Origin: an uncultured Solibacteraceae bacterium
Lineage (GTDB): Bacteria; Acidobacteriota; Terriglobia; Bryobacterales; Bryobacteraceae
NCBI GenBank assembly: GCA_963792055.1
Contig: CAWBUV010000017.1
Coordinates: 252,283 to 316,282 of the forward strand
Length of the DNA stretch: 64,000 nt
Direction: 5' to 3'
Shown: positions 1-55,994 of the stretch, piece after piece
Position numbering within the stretch: position 1 is the stretch's first letter
Layout: every line of letters begins with the position of its first letter
Notes under the pieces: generated by a model
The model's database searches: none
The model's input: the letters and a program-made list of their open reading frames with translations, nothing else
What the model was told of the DNA's origin: nothing
Position numbers and translations under genes: made by a program

Positions 1-316
1 TGGATGTGGCGTGCGTGCCGGGGTAGGCATTGCGTAATTCGAGATTGGTGATGACGGTCAGTTGATCGGCAACCCGGGAGAGCGATTTCAGGGTTGGTGA
101 AAGTTCGCCAAGCGTGCCCGTGCCATTCGGCGTCCATTCCGGCATGTGGGCGCCCATGGGCATGTACACGAAGCCAAGGCGACGGACCGGGCGTGCCGGA
201 GTGGCGGCGAGCGCGGTCATGGACGGAATCATGGCGTCCAGCAGGGGCAGGGCCAGGGTGGTCCCCACGCCGCGGAGAAATGTGCGACGCGGCAGCGCCT
301 TTTTGGTGACGATCAT
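1..316 (-). CDS. DUF1552-family protein, N-terminal fragment (gene continues beyond window start)
   Basis: Minus-strand ATG at 316-314, then my translation MIVTKKALPRRTFLRGVGTTLALPLLDAMIPSMTALAATPARPVRRLGFVYMPMG... This is a twin-arginine-type signal and an N-terminus typical of DUF1552. ATGA start/stop overlap with the upstream DUF1592 gene. Not in the ORF track because it has no stop inside the window. Confidence 0.7.
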   Translation of the reverse strand, partial: MIVTKKALPRRTFLRGVGTTLALPLLDAMIPSMTALAATPARPVRRLGFVYMPMGAHMPEWTPNGTGTLGELSPTLKSLSRVADQLTVITNLELRNAYPGTHATS

Positions 317-3097: not shown

Positions 3098-6000
3098 CTA
3101 ATCGCTATCCAGAGTTGCGCGCAGTAACTTTACCAGATCGCCGACCTGGAAGGGCTTCCTGATAAAGTCCTTGACGATGGAAGCGTCAATGGACTGAGCC
3201 ACCATCTCCCGGCTATAGGCGCTGGTAAGAACCACTTTGACGGATGGCCGGGTACGCTGCGCTTCCCGGATGACCTCGCGGCTCGGTGTTCCCGGAAGGG
3301 TCATGTCCAGCAGGATGATGTCAATTTGCGCCGGGTGATTGCGAAGCAGGTCCACGGCGGCAGACCCGTCGCGCGCACCCACTACACTGAAACCCTTCCT
3401 GGCAAGCATCTTGGAGACGGAAGTACGGAGAGCATCTTCGTCTTCTACCAAAAGTAGAGTGGCGGCCGCACCGTTGATTTCCGAGGCCAAATCAGGCGAC
3501 GTGGGAGCGCTGGGCCTCTCCGGAACATCGGCGCAGGGCAGGAAGATTTGAAAAGTGGAGCCTTGGCCGGGGGTGCTGCTCAGGTGGATGGCGCCAGCGT
3601 GGGCACGGACAATTCCCTGCACAACCGCCAGGCCGAGACCGCGGCCGGCGAACTTGGTAGTGAAGAAGGGGTCAAAGATTCTTGCCTGCTGCTCCTGGCC
3701 GATCCCGCTACCGGTATCCGAAACCGACAAGCAGAGGTAATCGGCATCGGCCAGGTTTGTGCCCGCAAACGCAGGAACGTTCCGCCCTGCGAAGGAGGTA
3801 GCGACGTGGATGAGACCGTCCTTCTCTCCGAGCGCTTCCGAAGCGTTAATGATCAGATTCATTACAATCTGCCGGACCTGTGCGGCATTGCCGCGAACGG
3901 CGGGAAGTCCATTGCGGAGATCGGTTTTCAATATCGCGTGCTTCGAGATGGAGACTTTGAGCAACTCCAGCATCTCTTCCACCAGCCTGGAGAGGTCTAC
4001 CGAGCCGAGATCGGCCTGATCCTGCCCCGAGTAGATCATGAGTTCACGCACGATTTCGGCGGCACGGACGGCTACCGCCTTAATCCTCTGGATATGCTCG
4101 GCCGGAGAGGCACCGCTTGCAGCCTCCAACTCCGCCAGTTCCGCATCCGCCAGGACGCTGCCCAACAGATTGTTAAAGTCATGGGCGATGCCCCTGGTCA
4201 GAGCACCCAAACTCTCCAGCTTTTGTCTTTCCGCGTCCTCCACCTGGGCACGTTTGAGATCCGTGATATCGATATCGGAGCCGATATAGCCGGCGAAGGC
4301 TCCACCCGGGGCGAAGTGAGGCACCCCGCTGCACAACAGCCACCGGTAGGCACCATCGGCACGGCGTATCCGGTATTCGATGTGGAAGTCCAGGCGAGCA
4401 TCAAAGGCCGAACAGTAAGCGGCAAAGCAGCGGTCGGCGTCGTCGGGGTGGATACCCTCGGCCCAGCCGTTGCCCAATTCCTGTTCCAGGGTCCGGCCCG
4501 TGAAGCTCAGCCAGGTCTTGTTGAAAAAGGTGCAGAGCTTGTCGACGCCGGACATCCACATCATTACAGGCGCGGTGTCGGCCAGATTACGGAAGAGTTC
4601 TTCGCTTTCGCGTAGAGCGGTTTCGGCCTGCTTGCGCTCGGTAATATCGAGGCTGACGCCAACCAGGCGAGCGGCTTCGCCGGCCTCGTTGAGCATGACC
4701 GCGGCCTGCGAGAGCGTCCAACGGAGGGTGCCATCGGGCAACACCACACGGAATTCCGTTTCCAGATTTTGCTTTTTGACGACACTCTCCGCCGCGAGCG
4801 CCAGCAGGCGTTTTTTGTCGTCGGGGTGGATCAGTGCAACCCATTCGGCGAATGTCCGGGGGTCGCCCAACGCGGCATTCGGCGGCGACAGCGTGATCGA
4901 CTTCTCCCGCAGATCGCAGTGCCACACCGAGAGGCGCGCGGCGCTTAGCGCTAGTGTCAGGCGCTGCTCACTTTCGCGAAGGGCGCTCTCCACCTGGATG
5001 CGTTCGGTGCTGTCTTCCATCACGCCGATGAAGTATTGCGGCTCGTGATTATGATCGCGCACCAATGAGACATTCACCCGCACCCAGACTGGCGAGCCGT
5101 TCTTGCGGAGGCAGCGTTTCTCTGTGGAGTACGACGTGATTTCGCCGTTCAAAAGTCTCTGAATTGCGTGGACACAGGCCTCGCAGTGATCGGGGTGTGT
5201 GATTTGGAGAAACGTCATCCCGAGCAATTCCGCGCGCGAATATCCGAGGATCTCGCAAATGCGATCGTTCACCAGCCGAAACTGCCCGGAAAGGGTGGCC
5301 TGGGTGATGCCGACCGCTGCCTGAAAAAAAGTGGCCCGGAAGAGCTCCTCACTGTCTCGCAGTGCCAGTTCCGTGTGCCGCCGTTCGGTTGCGAACCCGA
5401 CATGGGTGGCGATGGTTTGAGCGATCTGGAGTTCTTCTGTCCGAAACTCGTGCGGCTGGTTGTAATACAACATCAATTTGCCGATCACTCCGCCGTTTCC
5501 CAACAGGGGGATGAAGGCAAGTGCCCGAATCCCTTCCTTCTCGAGCGCCGGCAGCATCGTGGAGATTGACGGGTCCAGGAGGACGTCCGGAACGGCGATG
5601 GTCCGCGCGTCGGGGGCTCCTCGCCGCCAGGGTGAATGCCCGGTCACCGCCGAGCGGTATTCGTCCGATAACCCGCTCCAGGCCTTGAACCGCATGACGT
5701 CATCGGAGTCGAAGATAAGAACACCGGCGTTGTCGGCGCCCACCGCATGCGTCAATCCTTGCACTGCCGCCAGGTAGATCTCGGCAGGCTGATGAGCAAG
5801 GTTGACCGCCTCTGCGAGGCCGCTCAACACCTGCATCTGTTCCAACTTACTTTGCAGTTCGCGAGCGGCGCGCTTTTGTTCGGTGATGTCCACGGAGATG
5901 CCGAGCATCGTCGCGGGTTCACCTCGATCGTCGCGGGTGACTTTACCTCGCGAGTACAGGAAGTGCACACTGCCGTCGGGCCAGATGACGCGGAACTCGT

Positions 6001-6619
6001 GTGCAAGACTACCCTGCTGCATGCCGTCCCAGAATGCCCTTCTCAAAGCGTCCTGGTCTTCGGGATGGACAAGGGAAAGGACGGAATCTGTCTTGCCGTC
6101 AAAGGTACCCGCCGGCACGCCGTGAAGCGCTTCCAACTCCGGGGACCAGCGGACTCGCCGCGTCTTCAGGTCACATTCCCAAACGCCCATCTTGCCGAAG
6201 GAAAGGGCCAGGCGGAGACGCTCATCAAGATCCCTTGCCTGCTTTCTGGCGGAGGTAATGTCGCGGAGAATGACAAGCACACCAGCGCCTGACGGGTATA
6301 CGTCGGCTTCCAGCCATCGATCGACGCTGGGACAATATTCTTCGCAGTGGCCCCGCTGCGGGCGCTCGGAGGCAACGCGATGCAACTCGGTGTAAAAGGC
6401 ATTCCCGAAGGCATTCGGGAAGATGTCCCAAGTTGACTTACCAATCAGGTCTGACGCCGGACGTCCGGCAAATTGCGCTGCCGCCCGATTTAAATACGTC
6501 ACCCGCCATTCCGCATCGAGGACAACCACGGCGTCGTGGATATTCTCGAGAACCTGCTCGACCGGGATTTCCCTTCCTTCTCCCAAAGGCCAAGTTAGAG
6601 ACTGCTTCGGATTCGGCAT
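3098..6619 (-). CDS. Multi-PAS/GAF sensor hybrid histidine kinase with C-terminal receiver
   Basis: Intact 1173-aa ORF. It has several PAS/PAC-like units separated by 'DIT(E/S)RK'-type boundaries and one GAF-like unit. H-box 'GIAHDFNNLL'; HATPase_c boxes 'NLIINASEAL', 'DTGSGI', 'GRGLGLAVV'. Receiver domain 'LLVEDEDALR...ILLDMTLPG'. Confidence 0.9.
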   Translation of the reverse strand: MPNPKQSLTWPLGEGREIPVEQVLENIHDAVVVLDAEWRVTYLNRAAAQFAGRPASDLIGKSTWDIFPNAFGNAFYTELHRVASERPQRGHCEEYCPSVDRWLEADVYPSGAGVLVILRDITSARKQARDLDERLRLALSFGKMGVWECDLKTRRVRWSPELEALHGVPAGTFDGKTDSVLSLVHPEDQDALRRAFWDGMQQGSLAHEFRVIWPDGSVHFLYSRGKVTRDDRGEPATMLGISVDITEQKRAARELQSKLEQMQVLSGLAEAVNLAHQPAEIYLAAVQGLTHAVGADNAGVLIFDSDDVMRFKAWSGLSDEYRSAVTGHSPWRRGAPDARTIAVPDVLLDPSISTMLPALEKEGIRALAFIPLLGNGGVIGKLMLYYNQPHEFRTEELQIAQTIATHVGFATERRHTELALRDSEELFRATFFQAAVGITQATLSGQFRLVNDRICEILGYSRAELLGMTFLQITHPDHCEACVHAIQRLLNGEITSYSTEKRCLRKNGSPVWVRVNVSLVRDHNHEPQYFIGVMEDSTERIQVESALRESEQRLTLALSAARLSVWHCDLREKSITLSPPNAALGDPRTFAEWVALIHPDDKKRLLALAAESVVKKQNLETEFRVVLPDGTLRWTLSQAAVMLNEAGEAARLVGVSLDITERKQAETALRESEELFRNLADTAPVMMWMSGVDKLCTFFNKTWLSFTGRTLEQELGNGWAEGIHPDDADRCFAAYCSAFDARLDFHIEYRIRRADGAYRWLLCSGVPHFAPGGAFAGYIGSDIDITDLKRAQVEDAERQKLESLGALTRGIAHDFNNLLGSVLADAELAELEAASGASPAEHIQRIKAVAVRAAEIVRELMIYSGQDQADLGSVDLSRLVEEMLELLKVSISKHAILKTDLRNGLPAVRGNAAQVRQIVMNLIINASEALGEKDGLIHVATSFAGRNVPAFAGTNLADADYLCLSVSDTGSGIGQEQQARIFDPFFTTKFAGRGLGLAVVQGIVRAHAGAIHLSSTPGQGSTFQIFLPCADVPERPSAPTSPDLASEINGAAATLLLVEDEDALRTSVSKMLARKGFSVVGARDGSAAVDLLRNHPAQIDIILLDMTLPGTPSREVIREAQRTRPSVKVVLTSAYSREMVAQSIDASIVKDFIRKPFQVGDLVKLLRATLDSD

Positions 6620-8019: not shown

Positions 8020-10686
8020 TTAATTCCTCCGCCCTGCCAGCCGGCGATCCAGTTCCTCCCCGAAGTTCAGCAGAAACGTCGCATGCACCGTGCTGCTCTG
8101 CGGCGAGACGTCGCCGGGTGCAACGCCGGTCAACACCCGCTTGCCGTCTGGCGCAAGTTCGAATGTAGCGCGCCCGATGTTGGAGGCAATTCTTGTCTCG
8201 CTCCAAAGCCGCGGCCTTCCTGCGGAAAACACGCCACCTTTGATCTGATAGTCCACCGCCATGATATGGCCATCATCGGTCGCATAGAGGATCTGTTGCG
8301 CGGACGGCGACCACCGGGGATGGTATCCGCTGCCGCCTGAAATTTGCGAACGTGTGCCCGGTCCGGGGAATGGTCTTACATAGGCTTCCCATGCTCCGCT
8401 GTCGTTGGACGCGTAGGCAACCCATTGGCCATCTGGCGAAAAGGTGACATGGGTTTCTGTGCCGGGCGTCTGCAGGAAAGGCTCCGCAGCGCCGGGTTTG
8501 GGGTTTTCGGGATCGCTCTTGTCGATCGGCAGCGTCCAGATGTCCTCCATGCTTCCCGCCGTCGAGATCTGCGTATAGCCGATCCGGCGCCCATCCGGTG
8601 AAATAGACGAGGGTATGATTGGAAGCTTGGCCTCCAGTAGTGTACGCACCTGCCCACCGCCGTCAAAGCGCGCCCACGATAGCCCATAACCATCTTTCAC
8701 CAGCGATCGGAACGCCAAATGCCGCGAGTCGGGTGCCCACACCGGATAAGAGTGCCCGCGACCGTCGGTAGTCACCGAGACAAGCATTTCTCGTGTTGTA
8801 TCCCACACTTTGATGTCGCTGGTATCGATTCCGCCGGACGTGAAGGCGACAAGTTTTCCGTCCGGGGAGATTGAACTATCGGAGGTGCCTCCTGGAAAAG
8901 GCAAGGGGCTGACATCCCCTTTAGCGTCCAACCAAACCAGACGCGCGCTTACCTCGGCCGCGTTTCCACTCATGTAAGCGAACAGCAGCCCGCTCACAGA
9001 GGTCCCACCAAAGCTGTACCGCCCCGCGGCGCTGATTACGTTAGCGGCGACGTTCTCTAAAACGCGAACAGGCTGACCCTTCTCCTCCAACCGATCCGGG
9101 TCGAAAGCGGTCGCAAAGAGGACACCATCGTGGACGTACAGGAGCTTGCCCGGCGCGAGGTAGCGGCTAGCGAAGCCGCCGCGATGCACAGCCTTGATCT
9201 TCCCGCCACTAGCGTCGAGAACGTCGATTTCGGAATCGTTGAGTCCCCAGGTGGCCTTGTTCGCAGTGAAGAGAACGGCGCGGCTGCCCGGTAGCACAGC
9301 GGGCCAACGGTGCGTCGCTTGACCAGTCGATGTCGGGTTTGTCAGCGTCTGCACCGTCCCACCATTTTCGGAGACTCGCGACAGAGGGCCTGCCGGATTC
9401 CCGGCGAACACGATTTGGCCATCGTCGCCCCACGACCCACCGCGCGGATTGGCGCTGACATCGGCGAGCGCGATCGGAGCGCCGCCGTGGACCGAGACCT
9501 TCTTCAACTTTCCATCGGCAAAGAATCCGATCCACTCGCCACTCGGCGAAAAGAACGGCTCCTGGCCACCTTCTGTACCTCTCAGAAGATCCGCCCTTTG
9601 TTGATCCAGCGCGCGCAGTTCGAGGGTCGATTTTCCTTCCGCCGAGCGCGCCGTAAACACGAATCGGCGGGCGTCGGGCGAAATCGCGATCACGTCCAGC
9701 GCCGCTGCCACCGCCTCAGGCCCGAGGTCCACGCTGAATTGCATGAATGGCCGGTCGGCCGCGCCCGACGTTCTCCATGCGACTATTCCAGCTGCCGCTG
9801 CGGCCGTGGCCGCAATCATCGTCGCCGCGATCCAAGGCCAAACGCGGCGCGTCATGACTGGCACTGCTGCCGCCGCGGGCATCTCATCCAGCAACAGGCG
9901 CGCACCCGAAATATCGCGGAGCCGCGCACGAGGGTCGCGCGTCAGGCACAGACGCAGAAGCTTGCGAAAGCGGGCGGGGACAGGGCTCATGTCCGGATCC
10001 TGCCGCAACACAGACGCCAGCACATCGCTAACCGACTCACCGTCGAATAGAGCCTTGCCCGTCAGCAACTCGTACACCACGACGCCGAAGCTCCAGATAT
10101 CCGCGCGCTTATCGACATTTTGCCCGCGCGCTTGTTCGGGCGCCATGTACGCAGCCGTGCCCATGATCACGCCCGCCATCGTCGCGCGCATCGTAAGCGT
10201 GGGCAAATCGGCGCGGTCAGACGCGTTTACGGCGTCGGACGACAATGCCTTGGCCAGGCCAAAATCGAGCACCTTCACGCGCCCCTCCGGGGTGAGCTTG
10301 ATGTTCGCCGGCTTGAGGTCGCGATGGACGATGCCCTTTTCGTGCGCGTACTCGAGCGCATCGATCAACTGGTGAACAATGGGCAACGCTTCTTCCTCCG
10401 TCAGCGGGCCGGAAAGCGTCGAGCCTCCAACTAACTCCATCACCAGCGCACGCTCTTCGACTCCATGAATGACTGCGATGTTCGGGTGATTGAGTGACGC
10501 AAGCACTTGCGCCTCACGGCTGAATCGAGCGAGACGATCGGGGTCCTTGGCGAAAACGTCGGGCAGAACCTTAATGGCGACCTCGCGCTGGAGCTTGGTG
10601 TCGGTCGCACGATAGACCGCACCCATGCCGCCTTCGCCCAGCTTGCCGGAGATGCGATAGTGAGCGATGGAACTGATCGGACTCAT
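8020..10686 (-). CDS. Ser/Thr protein kinase fused to TolB-like (PD40) beta-propeller
   Basis: Intact 888-aa ORF. Hanks motifs GEGGMGAVYRA, AIK, HRDLKPANI, DFGLAK, APE. One TM segment (WIAATMIAATAAAAAGIVAW). Repeated 'SPDG...' propeller blades follow. Confidence 0.9.
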   Translation of the reverse strand: MSPISSIAHYRISGKLGEGGMGAVYRATDTKLQREVAIKVLPDVFAKDPDRLARFSREAQVLASLNHPNIAVIHGVEERALVMELVGGSTLSGPLTEEEALPIVHQLIDALEYAHEKGIVHRDLKPANIKLTPEGRVKVLDFGLAKALSSDAVNASDRADLPTLTMRATMAGVIMGTAAYMAPEQARGQNVDKRADIWSFGVVVYELLTGKALFDGESVSDVLASVLRQDPDMSPVPARFRKLLRLCLTRDPRARLRDISGARLLLDEMPAAAAVPVMTRRVWPWIAATMIAATAAAAAGIVAWRTSGAADRPFMQFSVDLGPEAVAAALDVIAISPDARRFVFTARSAEGKSTLELRALDQQRADLLRGTEGGQEPFFSPSGEWIGFFADGKLKKVSVHGGAPIALADVSANPRGGSWGDDGQIVFAGNPAGPLSRVSENGGTVQTLTNPTSTGQATHRWPAVLPGSRAVLFTANKATWGLNDSEIDVLDASGGKIKAVHRGGFASRYLAPGKLLYVHDGVLFATAFDPDRLEEKGQPVRVLENVAANVISAAGRYSFGGTSVSGLLFAYMSGNAAEVSARLVWLDAKGDVSPLPFPGGTSDSSISPDGKLVAFTSGGIDTSDIKVWDTTREMLVSVTTDGRGHSYPVWAPDSRHLAFRSLVKDGYGLSWARFDGGGQVRTLLEAKLPIIPSSISPDGRRIGYTQISTAGSMEDIWTLPIDKSDPENPKPGAAEPFLQTPGTETHVTFSPDGQWVAYASNDSGAWEAYVRPFPGPGTRSQISGGSGYHPRWSPSAQQILYATDDGHIMAVDYQIKGGVFSAGRPRLWSETRIASNIGRATFELAPDGKRVLTGVAPGDVSPQSSTVHATFLLNFGEELDRRLAGRRN

Positions 10687-10881
10687 AGGCCGGATTGCAA
10701 TCGTATCATTCTTCAGACCTATCCTGGATTGATACGTCTGTGTGCCGAGGTAAACGCGGTTGTATCAGGCTAACACCCCGGTTGTCGGCAACCCGGACGT
10801 TGAACGTCCGGGTACAGGTCACTTCCCAGTCATGGTGCGTCACCCGTCCGGAAAGTGATACGATGCCTGAATCCATTCTTC

Positions 10882-13452
10882 ATGGGGCCTCAAACGACGA
10901 TAGCTCATTACCGCATCACGGCCAAGCTGGGTGAAGGCGGAATGGGCGCGGTATATCGGGCGACGGATACCAAGCTGCAACGAGACGTCGCAATCAAGAT
11001 CCTACCGGAGTCCGTGGCGGAAGATCGCGACCGAATGGCGCGGTTCCAGCGCGAGGCGTACGTGCTGGCGTCACTGAATCACCCGAATATCGCGGCAATC
11101 TACGGCGTTGAAGAGCGGGCATTGGTACTCGAACTGGTTGATGGCCTCGAGCCGAAAGGGCCTCTTTCCGAACCCGAAGCGCTCGCGCTGATCCATCAAC
11201 TCATCGACGCGCTCGAATATGCGCATGAAAAAGGCGTGGTCCACCGCGACCTCAAGCCAGCCAACCTCAAGGTCACGCCCGATGGACGGCTAAAGGTTCT
11301 CGACTTTGGACTTGCGAAGGCCGTGTCGGAAGAAGCTGTACCGCCGGGTAACGCGACGATATCGCCGACGCTCACGATTGGCGCGACGCTGACGGGCGTC
11401 ATTATGGGAACCGCAGCCTATATGTCGCCGGAGCAGGCACGAGGCAGCGCTATTGACCGGCGCGCCGATATCTGGTCTTTCGGCGTCGTCGTGCACGAAC
11501 TCCTGGTCGGGAAGAGTCTGTTCGAAGCGTCAACCATCAGCGACACGATCGCAGCAGTTCTGACGCGAGATCCCAATATCGAGAGCGTGCCGCCCCGCTT
11601 TCGACGCCTGATACGAACGTGTTTGCAGCGAGATCCGCGGCTTCGACTCCGAGACATCAGCGGGGCGCGCATTTTGTTGGAGGAAGCCGAACCCGCGCCC
11701 AAGGCACGATCGGGCGCGATGGGGTGGCTTGGCTGGATTGCTGCAGCGTTGTTCTTTGCCGCAGCGGCGCGGCTTGCGTTCACGCACTTTCGCGAGACCG
11801 AACCCGATTCTATAATCACGCGGACGTTGATCCCGGCACCCGAGAAGGCCACGTTCAACTTCAGTGGCGGATTGGCTACAACTGCGCCACTTGCTCTTTC
11901 ACCCGACGGGCGCCGATTGATCTTCGGCGCCAAGGGGGCCGATGGTAAGACTCAACTCTGGCTGCGTTCGCTCGAATCAGTGACAGCCCAGCCGGTGGCG
12001 GGAACGGAAGACGCGATTCATCCCTTCTGGTCGCCCGATAGCCGCTTCATTGGCTTCTTTGCGGGTGGAAAGCTCAAAAGGATCGATCCGGCGGGTGGTC
12101 CTCCGGTGACGCTCTGCGATGCCGTCAGCGGCCGCGGCGGAACCTGGAATGAGTCTGGTGTGATCGTCTTCGCCCCAAGCGGAGGTAAGACCGAGCTACG
12201 TCGCGTATCCGCGGCAGGAGGTCCTTCGGTTGCGCTGGAACTCGATGAAAGTGGCCGCTGGCCGTGGTTCCTACCGGATGGCCGCCATTTCCTATTCTCC
12301 TCTTTCGGCGCAATCCGGTTAGGAACGCTCGATTCCAAGCAGACGAGGGCTCTGGTGGAGACCGTGTCGGACGCAATCTATGCGGAAGGACGACTCCTAT
12401 TCCTTCGGGACGATACACTGATGGCGCAGCCGTTCAATCTCCAGCAATTGGCGCTGAGCAGCGAGCCGGTGCCGATTGCCGAAGACGTCCGCAGCGTGGG
12501 AGCGCAGCGGCGTGGGATCTTCTCAGCGTCACGGCACGGCCTACTGGTATACCAGGCCGGTGTTTCTGGCGGGAGCCACGCATTGACCTGGATCGATCGG
12601 GCGGGGAAGAAACTTGGGACCATGGGAGAACCCGCCGACCTGATGTCTGTTGCCCTTTCGCCCGATGGGAAGCGGGCGGCAACATCGGTTCTGGATCCGG
12701 CGACTCACTCCTACGACATCTGGATCTATGACATCGGGCGCGACCGGCCGACTCGATTCACATTCGACCGTTCGCGCGGTTTCATGCCCGCCATCTGGTC
12801 TCCCGATGGGTCCAGCGTGGCCTTCGTTTGGCCAGCTCGTCAGGGCACATTCGGACTGTACCTCAAGGCAGCCGATCTATCTGGCAGGGAAGAACTCCTT
12901 CACACCGAGAAGTTCGCCATGCTCCCAATAACCTGGCCCTCTGGAGGGCAGGAAATCTTTCTGGGTGGATGGGGCATCGACAGCAGAAACGCAATTCTCG
13001 CCGTTCCCCTGGCAGACGTATCGAAGGTGGTGCGGGTTGTAAACGACAACATCACATCGCCGCGCATCTCGCCGAACGGACGTTCGGTCGTCTATTCATC
13101 CTTCGAATCGTCCCGTTCGGAGGTATACGTGAGAAGTTATCCGGAAGGCGCGGGCAAGATTCAAGTTTCCGTTAATGGGGGGATGCAACCGCGCTGGAGT
13201 CATGACGGAAAAGAGGTTTTCTACATCGCGCCCGACGGAACGCTCACCGCGGCCAAGGTCGAGGTAAACGGATCCAAGATGCAGATTGGCCGCGTTCAGC
13301 CGCTGTTTGGAGGACTGTCCGCGAGTAACACAGGCGCGATCCCCTATGATGTCGCGCCGGACGGCAAGCGGTTTCTCGTGGATATAAAAATGGCGCCTGC
13401 TGCCGCCGAAGCGTTGGTCGTTGTGCACAACTGGCGATCCGCACTTCCGTAG
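10882..13452 (+). CDS. Ser/Thr protein kinase fused to TolB-like (PD40) beta-propeller (paralogue of 8020..10686)
   Basis: Intact ORF; the track starts at GTG 10855 and the first ATG is 10882 (MGPQTTIAHYRI...). It has the same kinase motifs, TM segment and 'SPDG' blades as the divergent neighbour. Confidence 0.9.
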   Translation: MGPQTTIAHYRITAKLGEGGMGAVYRATDTKLQRDVAIKILPESVAEDRDRMARFQREAYVLASLNHPNIAAIYGVEERALVLELVDGLEPKGPLSEPEALALIHQLIDALEYAHEKGVVHRDLKPANLKVTPDGRLKVLDFGLAKAVSEEAVPPGNATISPTLTIGATLTGVIMGTAAYMSPEQARGSAIDRRADIWSFGVVVHELLVGKSLFEASTISDTIAAVLTRDPNIESVPPRFRRLIRTCLQRDPRLRLRDISGARILLEEAEPAPKARSGAMGWLGWIAAALFFAAAARLAFTHFRETEPDSIITRTLIPAPEKATFNFSGGLATTAPLALSPDGRRLIFGAKGADGKTQLWLRSLESVTAQPVAGTEDAIHPFWSPDSRFIGFFAGGKLKRIDPAGGPPVTLCDAVSGRGGTWNESGVIVFAPSGGKTELRRVSAAGGPSVALELDESGRWPWFLPDGRHFLFSSFGAIRLGTLDSKQTRALVETVSDAIYAEGRLLFLRDDTLMAQPFNLQQLALSSEPVPIAEDVRSVGAQRRGIFSASRHGLLVYQAGVSGGSHALTWIDRAGKKLGTMGEPADLMSVALSPDGKRAATSVLDPATHSYDIWIYDIGRDRPTRFTFDRSRGFMPAIWSPDGSSVAFVWPARQGTFGLYLKAADLSGREELLHTEKFAMLPITWPSGGQEIFLGGWGIDSRNAILAVPLADVSKVVRVVNDNITSPRISPNGRSVVYSSFESSRSEVYVRSYPEGAGKIQVSVNGGMQPRWSHDGKEVFYIAPDGTLTAAKVEVNGSKMQIGRVQPLFGGLSASNTGAIPYDVAPDGKRFLVDIKMAPAAAEALVVVHNWRSALP

Positions 13453-13611: not shown

Positions 13612-13689
13612 TGGTCGGGCTGCCGAGATTTGAACTCGGGACCTCTTGCACCCCAAGCAAGCGCGCTAGCCAGGCTGCGCCACAGCCCG
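13612..13689 (-). tRNA. tRNA-Pro (anticodon GGG), CCA encoded
   Basis: Reverse complement CGGGCTGTGGCGCAGCCTGGCTAGCGCGCTTGCTTGGGGTGCAAGAGGTCCCGAGTTCAAATCTCGGCAGCCCGACCA folds by hand into a cloverleaf. Acceptor stem is 7 bp and D stem is GCGC/GCGC. Anticodon stem is CTTGC/GCAAG with loop TTGGGGT. T stem is CCGAG/CTCGG with loop TTCAAAT. Confidence 0.9.
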
Positions 13690-50993: not shown

Positions 50994-51170
50994 TTCTTGA
51001 TTCTACCCCGCGGCACGGGCGCGATGGCGCAGTGCCGGTGCGCCGGAACGTGAAACGCTGGCGCCGCTACGATCACCATACCGGAAGGGACCCGCTCATA
51101 TGACCCTCCCAACTAGGCGTTGAAGCGGTAAACTATCGAAAGTTCGAATCCGAAACGCAGGAGTCGTGGG

Positions 51171-53810
51171 ATGTCTACGGGTGATGCACTCAGCCCTCAA
51201 TTGGTGTCTTTACAGCGCTTCCAGATGGAGGCGAACTTCGAAGGACTGATCCAACTTCTGGCGAAGAACCTGTATCCGGAGCCGGACGTCTTTGTCCGCG
51301 AGTTGATTCAGAATTCGCACGACAGCGCCGTACTAAGGCAAAAGGACGAACCGGGCTTCATTCCGGAGATCGACGTCTCTTTCGACATCGAGAAGCGTAC
51401 TATTACATTCTCGGATAATGCGCGCGGGATGAACCTGGACGAGATCCGCGGCTTTCTGTCGGTGATCGGCTCGACGGGTACTGGCGCGGAAAGGGAAAGC
51501 CTTGCGAAGCAGGGCCGCGAGAGCGCGCGGAAACTGATCGGCCAGTTTGGCATTGGGATGCTTTCGGCTTTTGTCGTCGCCAGCGAGGTTGTGGTACGGA
51601 CCAGGCGGGTAGGTTCGGAACAGGCCTATATTTGGGTGAATCGGGGCAGCCAGGAATGTACGGTTTATGCGGGGGTCAAGGACGAGTTCGGAACCGAAGT
51701 GACCCTCAGCGTGCGCGAGAGCTTCTCTTACATGCTCGATGAGGGGCGGCTTTCGAAGACCATCACGCGCTATTGCGATTTCCTCCCCATTCCCGTCCGC
51801 TTGAACGGCCGCGGTCCCGTGAATGCCCTCAGCGCGCCCTGGCACCGGGATCAGTGGACTTCGCCGGCGGAAAAAGAGGAGGCCTATGAGCAATTTATCA
51901 TCCGTCATTACAACCCGGACTTGCCGCTGCTGGTTATCCCCATCGATATCGATGAACAGTTCCAGGCACGAGGGGTCTTGTATATACCGGATCGAAAGGT
52001 GTCGAACTCCAATTCCACCGGTGTAATCGACATCTTCGTGCGGCGGATTTTCTTGAGGGGCAACGACAACTCGTTTCTTCCCTCCTGGGCCGGCTTTGTA
52101 CGCGGCGTCATCGACAGTCCGGATCTACAGCCCACCGCGGCACGCGACAACGTGCAACGCAATGAAAACCCGGCCTTCGAGTTTCTCCGGCGCCGCGTCG
52201 CCGATCTGATCATCACGAGGCTCCTGCAGCTTGCGGAAAAGGAGCCCGTACGGTTCCGCCAGGTAAATCACTGGCACCATACGCAGATGAAGGATATGGC
52301 CTTTCAGAACCAGGAAGCCTTTGATCAACTTGCCGGCCTGCTTCTGGTGGACACCAACAAAGGATTGATCTCTCTCAGGGACTACCTGAGCCGGAATCCA
52401 CGCCGAGCCGATAAAGAAAACAAAGCGGCCATCTATTACTTCGTTCATCGTAGCGCCACCTCGCAGTTCTACCGCCTGGCGGACGCCCGCGGGTGGGTCG
52501 TGATCAACGGTTCCGACCGCTCTGAAGAGCGGGTGCTCGAAAAATATGCCAAGCTGAACCACCGCACCATTCATCTGGCGCGAATCGACGATCCGGACAG
52601 TCCCGACCTCTTCGAGTCGATTGGGGAGGAGGATCAAAAGCTTCTGCGGCCCTTAGAAATCGAGCTCGAAAGTGAGATCAGGCGGCGCGGGTTTTCGAAC
52701 GTGCTGGTGAGGACACGTCGTTTCGCGCCGACCGATCTTCCGGCGGTGCTGATCACCACGCCCGAGGGCGAGGTAGACGAAAAGCTCCGCAGCCTGCGCG
52801 ACGATCCCTACTACATGTCCACCATGGACGACGTTGCCCGAGACTTCCTCTCGCAGGGTCCGGCCCGGCCGAGCTACCTCTCGCTCAACGCATCCAATAG
52901 CCTGATCCAAAAGCTGGCCGCAATCGACCGGCGGGAGGATGCAGTGCGGGATGTCATGGCGGGCATCTATCAGAGCGCGGTGCTTCATTCCGAGAATCTG
53001 TTGAATCCGCGAACCGTGAAATCGCTGCATCAGCACCTGGTGGCGCTGCTCGATGCGGTCGTGCAGAAAGACGAAAAGGTTCGTAAGCTGCAACAGAGGC
53101 TGGATCAGGCAGTGAAGGAACTGGCACAGCCACGCGCAGTTGAGGCGGCGCCGCAGGAAAGGGCGGACCATATCCTGCTGTTCATGATCACACCGTTCGG
53201 CGCCGAATATAAGCCGCTCGAAGAGGCCGTGCGACGGGTGTTTGAAACCAAGCCTTACTTCTTTGAATTGCGGCTGGCGCGCGACTACACACACAACTCC
53301 GAAAGCGTGCTCGCCAACGTCCGTGAACACATGCGCCGCGCCAACGGATTCGTGGCCGAGATCACCGAACTGAAGCCCAACGTCATGTTCGAACTAGGTG
53401 CCGCCATGGTTACCAATGGCGGACGTCCTGTATTTGCCCTGCGGGCCGCAACTGCGGACCTGACAAACATACCGGCTGACGTCGGTACCAAGTTGTATGT
53501 CAGCTACAGTTCCTTAAAGGACTCCGTGGAAGCGATCGAAAAGCAGATTCGCGAGGCGTTCGAACAAGGTGGGAGATCGCGTAGCGATGAGATTCAGGGT
53601 TTGCTCGATCAGCGGCGGCAGAAGTTCCTGTCTCGAACACTGCTGCGCAGCCTGGAGCGGCTAAAGGAACTCGAAATCGACGCCCTCACGGGATCCTACC
53701 GGTACGTAGAAGAACTGGTCGCCGCGGATTCCGCCGATGTCGCCAAACGCACAAACTTGCGGGAACGCGTGGTCCTGGCAGTCCAGGACGAGTTACAGCA
53801 GCAGTTATGA
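51171..53810 (+). CDS. Hsp90/HtpG-family paralogue with ~220-aa C-terminal extension (Rossmann-like TIR/NDT-like domain + helical tail)
   Basis: Intact 879-aa ORF; AGGAG lies 9 nt before the ATG. GHKL/Hsp90 blocks: 'VRELIQNSHDSA', 'FSDNARGM', 'VIGSTGTGA', 'IGQFGIGMLSAFVVA'. Middle domain: 'FVRGVIDSPDLQPTAARDNVQRN'. Extra C-terminal domain: 'ILLFMITPFG...FVAEITELKPNVMFELGAAM...RPVFAL'. Confidence 0.85.
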   Translation: MSTGDALSPQLVSLQRFQMEANFEGLIQLLAKNLYPEPDVFVRELIQNSHDSAVLRQKDEPGFIPEIDVSFDIEKRTITFSDNARGMNLDEIRGFLSVIGSTGTGAERESLAKQGRESARKLIGQFGIGMLSAFVVASEVVVRTRRVGSEQAYIWVNRGSQECTVYAGVKDEFGTEVTLSVRESFSYMLDEGRLSKTITRYCDFLPIPVRLNGRGPVNALSAPWHRDQWTSPAEKEEAYEQFIIRHYNPDLPLLVIPIDIDEQFQARGVLYIPDRKVSNSNSTGVIDIFVRRIFLRGNDNSFLPSWAGFVRGVIDSPDLQPTAARDNVQRNENPAFEFLRRRVADLIITRLLQLAEKEPVRFRQVNHWHHTQMKDMAFQNQEAFDQLAGLLLVDTNKGLISLRDYLSRNPRRADKENKAAIYYFVHRSATSQFYRLADARGWVVINGSDRSEERVLEKYAKLNHRTIHLARIDDPDSPDLFESIGEEDQKLLRPLEIELESEIRRRGFSNVLVRTRRFAPTDLPAVLITTPEGEVDEKLRSLRDDPYYMSTMDDVARDFLSQGPARPSYLSLNASNSLIQKLAAIDRREDAVRDVMAGIYQSAVLHSENLLNPRTVKSLHQHLVALLDAVVQKDEKVRKLQQRLDQAVKELAQPRAVEAAPQERADHILLFMITPFGAEYKPLEEAVRRVFETKPYFFELRLARDYTHNSESVLANVREHMRRANGFVAEITELKPNVMFELGAAMVTNGGRPVFALRAATADLTNIPADVGTKLYVSYSSLKDSVEAIEKQIREAFEQGGRSRSDEIQGLLDQRRQKFLSRTLLRSLERLKELEIDALTGSYRYVEELVAADSADVAKRTNLRERVVLAVQDELQQQL

Positions 53811-54961
53811 GTCAGGCAGCGAACGCGAACGCAAGTGCGATTGCTCAGGGCCGAAAGCGGATGGAAGAGTTGATTGACGCCGCTGACAGCTTATACACGC
53901 GCTCTGAATATGAGCAGGCTGGCGATCTCTACCGTCGGGCTTGCGAAATTGCCGACGCGATTGGGGCGCGCGAGGAGTGGTTCCAATATCGCCTGTGGTG
54001 GGCCGAATCCCGAAGACTGCACGGGCGGCTTCGGGAGGCATTTGTGCTTGTCGAGCCACTCTTGAAGGACGACGATACCCCAGCAAGACCCGCTGATCGC
54101 AGTATGGCAGTCCAAGTCTATACAAAGCTGGTAATCAATCTTCCTGTGGCACTGGCGACTATAGAGAAAACCCTGGAGCGGGCTGAGACTTTAGCACTCG
54201 ATTCGGGTGTTCCAAAAACGCTGTCGGTGTATACTCACCTGCGTGCCCGCTTGGCCTTGTGGAGCGGAGAGTATGATCGCGCAGAGACCTACGAGGAGGA
54301 GGCCTGGGCTATATGGTCTTCAGACTACCCCAACGTCGTGGCCGACCATTACTTCGTTCTCCGTGGCACGATCAGTCTTTTGAAACGCAGGCCGGACGCA
54401 CTCGACGCGTTGTTTAAAGAGTGGAGTACCTGCGAAGACGAACTCCCGACATTGCGTGAGGCTTCTCAATTGGATCTACGATCGCGCCGTGCAAGGCTGG
54501 AAAAGAATTTGCCCCTGGCTATCGATTATGGCCGGCGTTGCCGCCTCATCAATAACGAGGCAGTCGCACCTCTGATCCGGGCCTTTTTGAGCACTGGAGA
54601 TATTGCGCTTGCAATCGAGCCATTATTGCAGATGCGTCGCGATTGCAGAAGAAGCGAGGGAGGGCGTGCACGATTCGAAACCGCTCGCTTGAACCTGGAC
54701 TTTCATCTTGCGGCGACACGCTCCGTGGCCGGCATGGCCCCCGCAGATGACGAATTCGATCTCGATTTTCCCGCGCCGGCGTCGATTCGAGATCCCAAAG
54801 CCACGGCGAAGGCCCTCCGTCGAACTCGTAGGGCCCTACGGACTGTGCAAGAGATCGCGCGCTCTCTCGACGAAAAGCTGGAATGCACTTCTCACCTCGA
54901 AGAAGTTCGCAAACGTCAGAAGCGCATCGAAGATATCGAGGACGCCCTGGAACGTTCCTAA
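53807..54961 (+). CDS. All-helical TPR-like repeat protein, translationally coupled to the Hsp90 paralogue
   Basis: Intact 384-aa ORF with an ATGA overlap at 53807-53810. TPR-like units such as 'ADSLYTRSEYEQAGDLYRRACEIA' and 'ALWSGEYDRAETYEEEAWAIW'. Charged coiled-coil-like C-terminus. Confidence 0.75.
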   Translation: MSQAANANASAIAQGRKRMEELIDAADSLYTRSEYEQAGDLYRRACEIADAIGAREEWFQYRLWWAESRRLHGRLREAFVLVEPLLKDDDTPARPADRSMAVQVYTKLVINLPVALATIEKTLERAETLALDSGVPKTLSVYTHLRARLALWSGEYDRAETYEEEAWAIWSSDYPNVVADHYFVLRGTISLLKRRPDALDALFKEWSTCEDELPTLREASQLDLRSRRARLEKNLPLAIDYGRRCRLINNEAVAPLIRAFLSTGDIALAIEPLLQMRRDCRRSEGGRARFETARLNLDFHLAATRSVAGMAPADDEFDLDFPAPASIRDPKATAKALRRTRRALRTVQEIARSLDEKLECTSHLEEVRKRQKRIEDIEDALERS

Positions 54962-54962
54962 T

Positions 54963-55328
54963 CTACCGCCGCGCCAGCAGAGCACCCAGCCAGACCGCCG
55001 CGTAGCCAAACACGACGCTGCCCACCACATTCGCCAGCCCGATCCAGAAGCCGCCTCCACGCACCGCCGCATAGGTCTCCCATTCGAAACTGGAAAATGT
55101 CGTGTAGCCGCCCAGGAACCCCACCACCAACACCAGCCGCCAATAAGGATGAGGTTGGCGCTCCGTGAGCAGCGTCATGATCAGTCCGATCAGGAAGCAC
55201 CCGGTAACGTTGACCACCATCGTGCCCGTCGGAAAGCGCGTGCCGAACCGGCTGGCGATCACGGAACTCGCAAAGTACCGCGCCAGCGAACCTACACCGC
55301 CTCCCAGCAGGATCAGCAGGTACTTCAT
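54963..55328 (-). CDS. crcB: Fluoride ion channel CrcB/FluC
   Basis: ATG 55328 gives 'MKYLLILLGGGVGSLARYF...FPTGTMVVNVTGCFLIG...GFLGGYTTFSSF', a typical CrcB of 121 aa (122 codons including the stop). The ORF track fuses it in frame to tsaC; see the findings. Confidence 0.9.
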   Translation of the reverse strand: MKYLLILLGGGVGSLARYFASSVIASRFGTRFPTGTMVVNVTGCFLIGLIMTLLTERQPHPYWRLVLVVGFLGGYTTFSSFEWETYAAVRGGGFWIGLANVVGSVVFGYAAVWLGALLARR

Positions 55329-55356
55329 CGGCGCCGGCCCGATCTTCGACGGCGCC

Positions 55357-55994
55357 TTACGACGATTCCAGGCACTCCGCGATTTCCTTCTCCGCAATCG
55401 CGCCGCCTTGATGACGCGCCAATACGGCTCGGTGATATCGATGGTAGTCGCGCCCTCGCCCGCGCAATGCCCGCCATCCAGCACCAGGTCCACACGGCCG
55501 TCCATCATGCCGAACACATCGATGCCGCTGTGGCACGTGGGATGTCCCGAAATATTGGCGCTCGTCGAAATCAATGGCTGGTCCAACAGCGCGATCAGCC
55601 TCGTTGCCGTCTCCGAGCGCGAATGGCGTAGCGCCAGGCGTCCCGTATTGCCGGTCACCTTGAGGGGAATCTTCGCCGCCGCCGGCACGATCATCGTCAG
55701 CGGCCCTGGCCAGAACCGCCGCGCCAGGATGAAAAAGCGCGCCGTCAGTTCGCTCGCCAGTTCCTCCGCCATCATCGTGTCGCGGATGAGGATGGGCAGC
55801 GCGCGGCTGGATTCGCGCCCCTTGGCGTGAAACACGCCGGTGACGGCGCGCAGGTTGTAGGGGTCGGCCACCAGGATGTACAGCGCGTCGGTGGGGATCG
55901 CCACCACCTTTCCGCGGCGCACGGCGGCGGCGGCTCGCTCCAGCGCTTCCGGCTGGGGATCCTGGGGATCGATTTCGACCAGGTCGGTTGCCAT
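55357..55994 (-). pseudogene. tsaC: L-threonylcarbamoyladenylate synthase (YrdC/TsaC domain); one frame change near the 3' end
   Basis: 'VVAIPTDALYILVADP', 'RFWPGPLTMIVP' and 'ISTSANISGHP' are in the 55994 frame. The family-typical end 'GAIAEKEIAECLESS*' is in ORF 55357..56073. One base added within aaggcggcgcg (about 55401-55410) joins them. Confidence 0.8.

Follow-up and report, generated by a model that had tools for sequence, protein, structure and literature searches.

The window analysed here is a stretch of 64,000 nucleotides (nt) from an uncultured Solibacteraceae bacterium (assembly GCA_963792055.1, contig CAWBUV010000017.1, positions 252,283 to 316,282), and our subject is a pair of adjacent genes in it, encoding an Hsp90 paralogue of 879 amino acids (aa) and a partner of 384 aa that resembles tetratricopeptide repeat (TPR) proteins. 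Open reading frame (ORF) calling places the two genes at 51171..53810 and 53807..54961, both on the forward strand and both with an ATG start. The TGA stop of the first and the ATG of the second share the tetranucleotide ATGA, an overlap of 4 nt, the junction being TTATGAGT and, in a longer read, cagcagTTATGAgtcag. A preliminary description of this DNA had proposed an intact overlapping gene pair; the coordinates of both ORFs proved exact and the ATGA junction was confirmed. The features of the pair, each with the basis of its assignment, are the following.

50994..51170, forward strand: intergenic region 5' of the pair, 177 nt, presumed to hold the promoter and the ribosome-binding site
51171..53810, forward strand: gene of the 879-aa protein, an Hsp90 paralogue with a domain like nucleoside 2'-deoxyribosyltransferases (NDT) and TIR domains and a helix-hairpin-helix (HhH)-like tail (profile and motif matches)
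51222..51875, forward strand: GHKL (Bergerat-fold) ATPase N-domain, aa ~18-235 (HATPase_c_3 match)
51876..53090, forward strand: Hsp90 middle and C-terminal (dimerisation) domains, aa ~236-640 (Pfam HSP90, PRK14083)
53091..53171, forward strand: poorly conserved linker, aa 641-667 (conservation profile; low predicted local distance difference test score, pLDDT, at the first residues of the structural model)
53172..53561, forward strand: flavodoxin-like NDT/DNPH1/TIR-like domain, aa 668-797 (AlphaFold2 (AF2) model, Foldseek, profiles)
53562..53807, forward strand: helical tail with an (HhH)2/SAM-like signature, aa 798-879 (motif FLSRTLL ... Y.TVEDLL.A....LA..TGL)
53807..54961, forward strand: TPR-like all-alpha solenoid partner, 384 aa, 17 helices (AF2 model, Foldseek)

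A GGAG sequence can be read 8 nt upstream of the ATG of the 879-aa gene. A scan of 50994..51170 for the sigma-70 consensus gave nothing above the shuffled expectation, and the promoter and terminator scan was uninformative. A protein with 3 substitutions relative to the 879-aa protein (P0001) was found on two metagenomic contigs, one from JGI and one from ENA, and the JGI contig has the gene order of the window, with GT2-GT2-DUF2304-TPR-GT4 upstream and CrcB downstream. Given this near-identical protein on two contigs, one of them with identical gene order, it is unlikely that the two ORFs are assembly artefacts.

The first ~650 aa had been described as a complete Hsp90 architecture, and the profile searches agree with this assignment. 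The NCBIfam model 'HSP90 family protein' PRK14083 (NF010683) covers aa 18-636 (profile positions 7-601 of 604; 312 bits), Pfam HSP90 (PF00183) covers aa 235-638 (profile positions 97-499 of 518; 67.9 bits with a cut-off of 24.4, E=1.1e-18) and HATPase_c_3 covers aa 42-155. Every motif quoted in the preliminary description was located at its residue number, namely ELIQNSHDS (E44/N48/D51), FSDNARGM (D82), VIGSTGTGA, IGQFGIGMLSAF, GVIDSPDLQPTAARDNVQ (R325) and, in the C-terminal extension, E741; the positions of the ATPase site are E44 (51300-51302), N48, D51, D82, the GQFGIG motif at 124-129 and the catalytic-loop Arg325 (52143-52145). The score against PRK14083 lies below the equivalog cut-off of that model (455), as does the score of 279 bits against NCBIfam HtpG (NF003555; cut-off 371), and identity to annotated htpG genes amounts to merely 25-30% (tblastn). 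Because of this low identity and of the scores below both equivalog cut-offs, the 879-aa protein is, to judge from its sequence, a distinct Hsp90 paralogue and not the housekeeping HtpG.

In an alignment of 88 relatives that share the long form, E44, N48, D51, D82, G86, the GQFGxG lid and R325 are invariant, and the invariance of these ATPase residues suggests that the family is under selection for ATPase activity. The DxGxG motif of the window copy reads A84-R85 (51420-51425), whereas 87 of the 88 relatives have G-I at these positions; the G84A/I85R change was otherwise seen solely in P0001 and, since that protein carries the same residues on both the JGI and the ENA contig, a sequencing error is unlikely.

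Behind the Hsp90 core the protein continues for ~240 aa (the earlier estimate was ~220), and this extension is predicted to be a folded module. An AF2 model of aa 655-879, built from an alignment of 24 family members, reached a pLDDT of 91.0 and a predicted TM-score (pTM) of 0.88, which rules out the disorder that had been considered, and it shows five beta-alpha units in aa 668-797. Foldseek searches against PDB returned, with E~1e-3 and probability 1.0, human and rat DNPH1/Rcl (target-normalised TM-score, TMt, 0.65-0.72), nucleoside 2'-deoxyribosyltransferases and the CMP N-glycosidase MilB, and at the same E and probability the TIR domains of IL-1RAcP, MyD88 and SPARTA, the fold matches overall having TMt 0.6-0.72. 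Among viral models, the best matches were a CMP/hydroxymethyl-CMP hydrolase, a CAP12/Pycsar-TIR protein and phage NDTs. Concerning sequence profiles, both relevant Pfam families stay below threshold on the window copy: PF05014 gives E=0.011 and 16.3 bits (cut-off 28.8), and PF10137 gives E=0.02 and 12.9-15.4 bits (gathering threshold 24.7). PF10137 matches 12 of the 24 family members at E<1, and a relative without Hsp90, P0206, exceeds its gathering score with 25.8 bits.

Across the 24-member alignment the invariant residues of the module are F671, R688, P695, D705, N737, E741, G743, R752, P753, D770 and Y779. They fall in or near a series of motifs: FMITPF (with 'TPF' in strand 1), LARD (D705, 53283-53285), NPNVMFELG (beta3-loop-helix; E741, 53391-53393) and RPV. 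In NDT/DNPH1 enzymes the Glu nucleophile is located in a motif of the NPNVMFELG type, with an Asp upstream. D705 and E741 occupy the topological positions expected for the NDT Asp/Glu site in the predicted model, a correspondence at the level of topology; E741 is a sensible candidate for a catalytic residue and D705 a second one. The remaining ~80 aa, which the preliminary description did not recognise as a domain, are modelled as a bundle of 6 helices with pLDDT 93-98. When the tails of 41 family members were searched against Pfam, HHH_5 was matched by 16 of them (best E=4.6e-4), RAD51D_N by 5 and HHH_2 by 4, and the window tail had no match. The family profile of the tail gave weak matches in PDB (E 0.03-0.7) to RAD51D-N, Hef, Topo V, ERCC1, the alpha-CTD of RNA polymerase, ligase, UvrC and XPF, which are alike in theme, and the Gly-rich hairpins of (HhH)2 are not conserved. 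We take the tail to be an (HhH)2-like domain, putatively DNA-binding.

The module is not restricted to Hsp90 proteins. An exhaustive HMMER search with aa 655-879 produced 289 clusters at E<=1e-3, comprising Hsp90 fusions, fragments and other architectures. One protein of 2620 aa (P0187) is a STAND-like NTPase with the module at its C-terminus; in P0168 the module precedes an EAD8 adaptor with a trypsin-like peptidase, and in P0167 it precedes such a peptidase alone. EAD8 is defined as an adaptor recruiting effectors in NTP-dependent conflict systems (PMC7159879). A further protein of 630 aa, in a Lachnospiraceae metagenome-assembled genome (JBGUWZ010000076, a gut Firmicute; L014:8771-10660, forward strand), is arranged as signal/transmembrane (TM) segment, BspA-type leucine-rich repeats (LRRs; PF13306, E=2.6e-56), TM segment, coiled coil and module, a layout that resembles a Toll-like receptor (LRR ectodomain - TM - TIR-like). 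In a family of proteins of ~570-640 aa without Hsp90 (L015:97-1986 and L019:4516-6432 from Acidobacteriota, P0213, P0217, P0230, P0240, P0209 and P0245) a ~340-aa helical-repeat N-terminus is fused straight to the module. The idea that this N-terminus is the partner fused to the effector (a Rosetta stone arrangement) found no support in hhalign (probability 1.9%) and was set aside. The label 'effector-like', given earlier to the extension, thus finds support in the fold matches to DNPH1, NDT, MilB and TIR and in the fusions to STAND, EAD8-trypsin and LRR-TM proteins; such shuffling among sensor and switch scaffolds is what effector cassettes of conflict or immune systems usually do.

The 384-aa partner had been called TPR-like, and this is supported by its predicted structure and not by TPR matches of its own in Pfam, which are insignificant (E 0.35-0.9). 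The AF2 model, whose input alignment was narrower than the family alignment collected from gene neighbourhoods, has a pLDDT of 88.3 and a pTM of 0.84, and its best Foldseek match is MalT domain III (1hz4; query-normalised TM-score 0.59, TMt 0.61), ahead of APC5, LGN, Rap and NprR, all with probability 1.0 and a TM-score of ~0.6. A direct database search with the partner sequence found merely 2 relatives, because the partner diverges too fast for a word-based prefilter; the family was gathered instead from the gene neighbourhoods of long-form loci. With the resulting profile, annotated TPR proteins are recovered at E=3e-8, and several relatives have weak TPR_MalT matches. No model in PADLOC-DB v2.0 matches the partner. 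Eukaryotic Hsp90 works with TPR co-chaperones such as Hop/Sti1 and PP5, and SGT1-RAR1-HSP90 acts in plant NLR immunity. The parallel drawn with such co-chaperones in the preliminary description is a loose one: on the evidence of its model the partner is a sensor-type solenoid like MalT domain III and not a three-repeat Hsp90 clamp of the Hop/Sti1 type, and no MEEVD-like C-terminal peptide is conserved among 78 family tails, which are variable and non-acidic, the window protein ending in ...DELQQQL. Docking in the eukaryotic manner was dropped for lack of such a conserved motif.

The association of the two genes is conserved. The C-terminal module was scanned over one genome per GTDB species, with ORFs classed by profile hidden Markov models (HMMs), and in these species-representative genomes a partner-family gene adjoins every one of the 16 intact Hsp90-module genes whose flanks were long enough to judge. 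The spacing in the measured loci ranges from -40 to +20 nt, usually an overlap or a distance within 20 nt, and the order of the two genes is inverted once, in Microcoleus (L021). In diverse long-form homologues, namely Streptosporangium roseum and three metagenomic contigs, a gene of 368-408 aa without Pfam match lies directly downstream; a Nostoc contig ends 160 codons into the gene that follows its long-form Hsp90. The distance matrices of 18 pairs are strongly correlated (Mantel r=0.92, p=2e-4), as expected of co-evolving proteins. The Hsp90 core has a mean pairwise identity of 41% and the module one of 35%; the partner, with 21.5%, is the fastest-diverging of the three. Together with the retention of the partner by shorter Hsp90 forms described below, these data uphold the proposal that the pair is conserved as a unit.

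At two related metagenomic loci (L004:11891-13390 and L006:11845-13308) a third gene lies directly 3' of the partner. Its product has a SEC-C motif and a domain like spermine synthases, to which L006 adds a peptide deformylase domain; the gene is absent from the window.

Concerning the extension, 88 of the 120 best matches to the 879-aa protein have 840-910 aa and keep the module, and about one quarter of the close homologues have ~640 aa and are without it. In a neighbour-joining (NJ) tree rooted on Enterobacter HtpG the short forms are nested inside the long forms at no fewer than 3 places: a large Pyrinomonadaceae clade, the cyanobacterial pair P0064/P0077, and P0102. Since they are nested in this way, the short forms are best read as secondary losses, and from the sequences the module appears to be ancestral; the expectation that homologues mostly keep the extension was borne out. 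The short Pyrinomonadaceae proteins (638-640 aa) are encoded in a conserved block of MerR, VWA, short Hsp90 and partner genes (L007:5786-11125 and L086:4901-10201), which hints that the system has here been domesticated or rewired.

Intact pairs were found in Acidobacteriota, Cyanobacteriota, Actinomycetota, Clostridia/Lachnospiraceae, Methylococcaceae, Abditibacteriota, Chloroflexota and Alphaproteobacteria, and split copies without a partner in Armatimonadota and Bacteroidota, so that the family as a whole is patchily spread over at least 9 phyla. The two genes travel together between remote bacterial groups, in a pattern like that of horizontal gene transfer (HGT) and with the integrases, insertion sequence (IS) elements and plasmid carriage reported below; the preliminary description had asked whether the pair is patchily distributed, and it is. 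Among 50,697 phage records there was no long-form homologue. In the split copies, from Ferruginibacter (L010:7992-10639) and an Armatimonadota genome (L018:7861-10630), the Hsp90-module gene is broken into two overlapping ORFs; they may be decaying copies, or frameshift or mis-assembly errors. A partner upstream of these split genes was considered and rejected, hhalign being negative and no partner-family gene lying near either of them.

We examined the gene neighbourhoods of 21 long-form loci by a census reaching 4 kb from each and comprising 119 ORFs, which is a count and not a controlled enrichment test. A Phage_integrase gene lies within 4 kb in 5 of the 21 loci and a Uma2 gene in 2. At E<=1e-10 the PADLOC families represented among the 119 neighbours are ThsA and ThsB, PDC-S03 (twice), LmuA, mad3/mad6, PDC-M50B, PDC-S25, Dsr2-like and NYN, one of the loci adjoining ThsA/ThsB. 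Single loci contain a type I restriction-modification (R-M) system and a D5-like primase (Nostoc) or, elsewhere, IS110 and HTH transposases, tyrosine integrases, RadC, NYN and RHS toxins. Neither the window nor the 25 most frequent families of the census ORFs includes a CD-NTase or a pyrimidine cyclase. A basal variant is carried by a mobilizable plasmid of Pseudanabaena sp. ABRG5-3 (NZ_AP017561, L081:8228-13807), where the gene order is a divergent ThsB-like TIR gene (PF08937, 1.3e-25), an Hsp90-module gene of 877 aa, a gene for 232 aa without assignment and a partner-family TPR gene of 474 aa; the latter is one gene away from the Hsp90 gene and is recognised by the partner HMM with E=7e-26. 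An N6-methylase, a DEAD helicase of 1417 aa and VWA and AAA genes are found nearby. These neighbourhoods are suggestive of a mobile or defence setting. In agreement with the earlier statement that a heat-shock context is missing, no chaperone genes neighbour the pair in the window or in any examined locus, the promoter scan having been made without a search specific for sigma-32, and the surroundings differ between loci, integrases, IS elements and defence genes being frequent in them.

In the window, the flanks are as earlier described, with a GT2/GT4/TPR glycosyltransferase cluster upstream and crcB, as part of a convergent Sua5-CrcB ORF, downstream. The pair has a GC content of 0.57-0.58 (0.579 for the 879-aa gene, 0.567 for the partner) and its neighbours 0.62-0.67; at third codon positions (GC3) the values are 0.71 for the 879-aa gene, 0.59 for the partner, the lowest in the region, and 0.72-0.84 for the neighbours. 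The pair is a two-gene islet of low GC and GC3 amid housekeeping genes, a pattern consistent with recent acquisition. Searching the window for insertion scars, we found no flanking direct repeats, no att-like repeats and no tRNA beside the pair; the sole tRNA of the window is a tRNA-Pro(GGG) at 13612-13689.

A pairing of Hsp90 with TPR genes was also seen outside the family. In Listeria monocytogenes NCTC7974 (NZ_LR134399, L083:2986-7613) an Hsp90 of the PRK14083 type, which branches outside the 879-aa family in the NJ tree, is followed by two TPR proteins of ~320 aa (TPR_8, E=7.5e-6 and 2.6e-3) and an SMI1/KNR4 gene. The two downstream proteins were rejected as members of the partner family, being not homologous to it by HMM or hhalign. 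This family is not alone in its linkage to TPR genes, which may be general for non-canonical bacterial Hsp90 paralogues.

What the sequences show, namely the identity of the domains, the conserved residues, the linkage and co-evolution of the two genes, their patchy spread and the reuse of the module, leads us to favour, with moderate confidence, the reading that the pair is a horizontally mobile two-gene conflict module composed of a TPR sensor, an Hsp90 ATP switch and an N-glycosidase effector, in which case its target would most likely be phages or other mobile genetic elements (MGEs). The preliminary description had likewise thought of a conflict or signalling system before a housekeeping chaperone; partner adjacency, varied contexts, a folded module and co-evolution speak for this, and we infer a role in defence. 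The contacts, trigger, substrate and phenotype that we propose are as follows. The Hsp90 paralogue would be a constitutive dimer through its C-terminal domain, holding two NDT/DNPH1/TIR-like domains adjacent and inactive. The fast-evolving MalT-III-like partner would bind the Hsp90 clamp as a specificity subunit, recognising an invader protein or delivering it as a 'client', and engagement of client or partner would drive ATP-dependent closing of the clamp through E44, N48, D82 and R325. A rearrangement or oligomerisation could then activate the effector, whose Asp705/Glu741 site would cleave an N-glycosidic bond in NAD+ or in a (deoxy)nucleotide, while the HhH tail could turn it to a nucleic acid target; the outcome might be metabolite depletion or growth arrest. 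A more specific version, tentative and in our view somewhat doubtful, is that the Hsp90 chaperone cycle itself has been recruited as an immune switch, the TPR protein presenting an invader 'client' and closure of the clamp licensing the fused NDT/TIR-like N-glycosidase. If this were true, it would be the first bacterial pair of Hsp90 and TPR co-chaperone, a prokaryotic counterpart or forerunner of the eukaryotic axis of Hsp90, TPR co-chaperone and TIR/NLR immunity, and the first function for the long-ignored paralogues of the hsp90B/C type.

Several observations, however, weigh against a conflict module. The surroundings of the pair in the window are ordinary genes and not a defence island; neither PF10137 nor PF05014 exceeds its threshold on the window copy, and there is no significant full-length match to a PADLOC v2 model. 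The neighbourhood counts come from an uncontrolled census, and some of the PADLOC matches among them (PD-T4-6 kinases) may be generic. The window copy may be a hypomorph, since G84A/I85R could weaken ATP binding; the corresponding residue in yeast (G81) is where a temperature-sensitive allele lies. At least 3 lineages have lost the effector module, and the Pyrinomonadaceae block is syntenic and apparently vertically inherited; because these effector-less derivatives keep Hsp90 and partner, the core should have a function independent of the effector, and it may have a chaperone-type role. An explanation of the whole pair along this line, as a specialised chaperone of the Hsp90B/C type that, with its TPR co-chaperone, folds or assembles particular host clients, the NDT-like/HhH module being no toxin but an accessory part that regulates or senses nucleotides, seems to us rather unlikely. 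It accords with the complete Hsp90 architecture and its invariant catalytic residues, with the persistence of the Hsp90 and partner core after loss of the module as a syntenic block across Pyrinomonadaceae, with the ordinary surroundings in the window, with the distant Listeria paralogue and its downstream TPR genes, which suggest a general partnership of this kind, and with the existence of the ancient paralogues hsp90B and hsp90C, recognised but uncharacterised (PMC3708813). Yet a housekeeping co-chaperone would be expected to evolve far more slowly than the partner does, no client-type neighbour is conserved, and the context differs by phylum; the HGT-like spread with integrases, IS elements and plasmid carriage, the atypical GC of the pair in the window and the ancestral position of the long form in the tree also disagree with it, as do the invariant enzyme-like Asp/Glu site and the occurrence of the module on STAND, EAD8-trypsin and LRR-TM proteins.

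The effector could instead be directed at DNA, the GHKL dimer acting as a nucleic-acid clamp like those of MutL, MORC or GyrB and the TPR protein as a regulator. In this glycosylase-type restriction, DNA would be bound by the HhH tail, and the NDT/DNPH1-like domain would remove bases from modified invader DNA or hydrolyse the precursors of such DNA. This possibility, which we regard as quite unlikely, draws on the (HhH)2-like tail, with HHH_5 in 16 of 41 tails and weak but consistent matches to ERCC1, Hef, RAD51D, Topo V, UvrC and XPF, and on the best folds, which include enzymes of modified pyrimidine nucleotides (DNPH1, a 5-hydroxymethyl-dUMP hydrolase, and MilB/CMP-hmCMP hydrolases). In R-M and defence settings there are further GHKL proteins that act on DNA (PMC12137116, citing Iyer et al. 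2008), and the N-terminal GHKL domain weakly resembles GHKL models associated with restriction endonucleases (REases). On the other hand, the ATPase is a true Hsp90, with middle and C domains that match to the end, thus a protein clamp without known DNA role; the HhH evidence is sub-threshold and lacking for the window copy, (HhH)2/SAM-like folds also mediate protein contacts, and the 21-locus census showed no consistently linked methylase or modification gene. The same census, in which no receptor or effector gene (SLOG, Macro, SAVED etc.) is consistently linked, bears on the suggestion that the TIR-like domain generates a nucleotide-derived messenger, as Thoeris ThsB does, for an effector encoded elsewhere, with Hsp90 and TPR protein serving for sensing only. 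The TIR-family affinity (PF10137 matches), the locus adjoining ThsA/ThsB, the plasmid copy adjoining a ThsB-like TIR gene and the short forms, which show that the core is separable from the module, would fit a signal generator; but the 'TPF' of beta1, the 'NVMFELG' of beta3 and the best folds are nearer to hydrolytic NDT/DNPH1 enzymes than to signalling TIRs, and the two-gene unit moves alone, so that we hold it very improbable.

Concerning known systems, the literature distinguishes hsp90A (HtpG) from the paralogues hsp90B and hsp90C, the latter two being left aside functionally (Chen et al. 2006, as cited in PMC3708813). With these the 879-aa family shares the three Hsp90 domains, the Glu/Asn of motif I, the DxGxG motif, the GQFGxG lid and the catalytic Arg of the middle domain; it differs in its ~240-aa enzymatic/HhH extension, the pairing with a TPR gene, the mobile patchy spread and the missing heat-shock context. 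To our knowledge, bacterial Hsp90 is usually said to act without co-chaperones, and hsp90B/C paralogues have no assigned role. A precedent for a GHKL clamp controlling an effector is VcSduA, a Shedu of the paraMORC3 type with GHKL ATPase, clamp-like middle and C-terminal PD-(D/E)xK nuclease, validated as anti-phage, whose activity needs both the ATPase Glu and the nuclease Lys (PMC12137116). The arrangement is similar, a dimeric GHKL ATPase and middle clamp fused to a C-terminal effector enzyme, but here the ATPase is a bona fide Hsp90 and not MORC/MutL-like, the effector is an NDT/TIR-like domain of N-glycosidase type and not a nuclease, the TPR partner is separate and obligatory, and nothing in sequence relates the two apart from the Bergerat fold. 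The idea that misfolded proteins might be sensed by Hsp90-like GHKL N-domains was raised as a speculation in a Shedu preprint.

The combination of repeat sensor, NTP switch and effector is also that of STAND/NLR-like proteins (Avs, bNACHT, MalT-type); moreover, the partner resembles MalT domain III, and the effector module occurs on the STAND-like giant protein P0187. However, the switch is here a GHKL Hsp90 and not a P-loop NTPase, the sensor is a separate polypeptide, and the effector stands beside a constitutive dimerisation domain. CAP12 (CBASS) and PycTIR (Pycsar), PF10137, and NDT/DNPH1, PF05014, resemble the module in the flavodoxin-like fold predicted for it and in an acidic residue in the first helix turn after beta3; the differences are the sub-threshold scores of the window copy, the absence of a CD-NTase or pyrimidine cyclase nearby and of any cyclic-nucleotide sensor domain, and the fusion to Hsp90 and HhH. 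In eukaryotes, too, Hsp90 is genetically coupled to TPR proteins, and its support of plant TIR-NLRs is conceptually close, although the partner is a ~17-helix solenoid and not a carboxylate clamp of 3 TPRs and there is no homology evidence between the two partnerships. Tiamat (TmtA) and the GHKL type II REases share with the 879-aa protein a weak match confined to the N-terminal GHKL domain (TmtA E=1e-8 over aa 21-142; BbrUII-type REase E=8e-8), the rest of the protein being unrelated; membership of Tiamat, MADS or the REase GHKL proteins was rejected, as the PADLOC and NCBIfam matches span ~100 aa of profiles of 1300-1650 aa or ~660 aa.

No description of an Hsp90-effector/TPR system was found in PADLOC or in the searchable full-text literature, subscription-only papers being outside that scope, and neither Kaur et al. 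2020 nor Kaur et al. 2021, read with this question in mind, mentions Hsp90, HtpG or GHKL. The pattern of sensor, NTPase switch and effector is known; a full-length Hsp90 as the switch is unprecedented within the literature searched. The locus defines a widespread mobile family in which a predicted catalytically intact Hsp90 is always paired with a rapidly evolving TPR protein and, in its apparent ancestral form, carries an effector-type domain like nucleotide N-glycosidases. The NDT/TIR-like and HhH module is a new reusable cassette, present also on STAND, EAD8-protease and LRR-TM proteins of bacteria. If the pair is an immune module, a protein-folding clamp joins the STAND, AAA+/MoxR and MORC-type ATPases as a new class of NTP switch in defence; the pair would then offer a tractable two-gene system for studying how client recognition by Hsp90 becomes enzymatic output, and the reliance of plant and animal NLRs on Hsp90/SGT1 would have an evolutionary parallel in it.

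Finally, some other genes of the window deserve mention. The downstream ORF at 54963-55994 (reverse strand) is single and uninterrupted, with 343 aa that combine Sua5/YciO/YrdC (aa 24-196) and a CrcB fluoride channel (aa 226-337); its stop lies 1 nt from that of the 384-aa partner, a very tight convergent arrangement, and on the JGI sister contig CrcB is called as a separate gene of 121 aa. Farther away, the window encodes a PSCyt/PSD protein (DUF1585/1587/1588/1592/1595) of a type common in Planctomycetota-like genomes, twin Ser/Thr-kinase-PD40 genes in divergent orientation and a multi-PAS/GAF hybrid histidine kinase of 1173 aa, all of which give a hint of the host lineage, the coordinates given jointly for these genes being 313-2649 (reverse), 8020-10686 (reverse), 10855-13452 (forward) and 3098-6619 (reverse).

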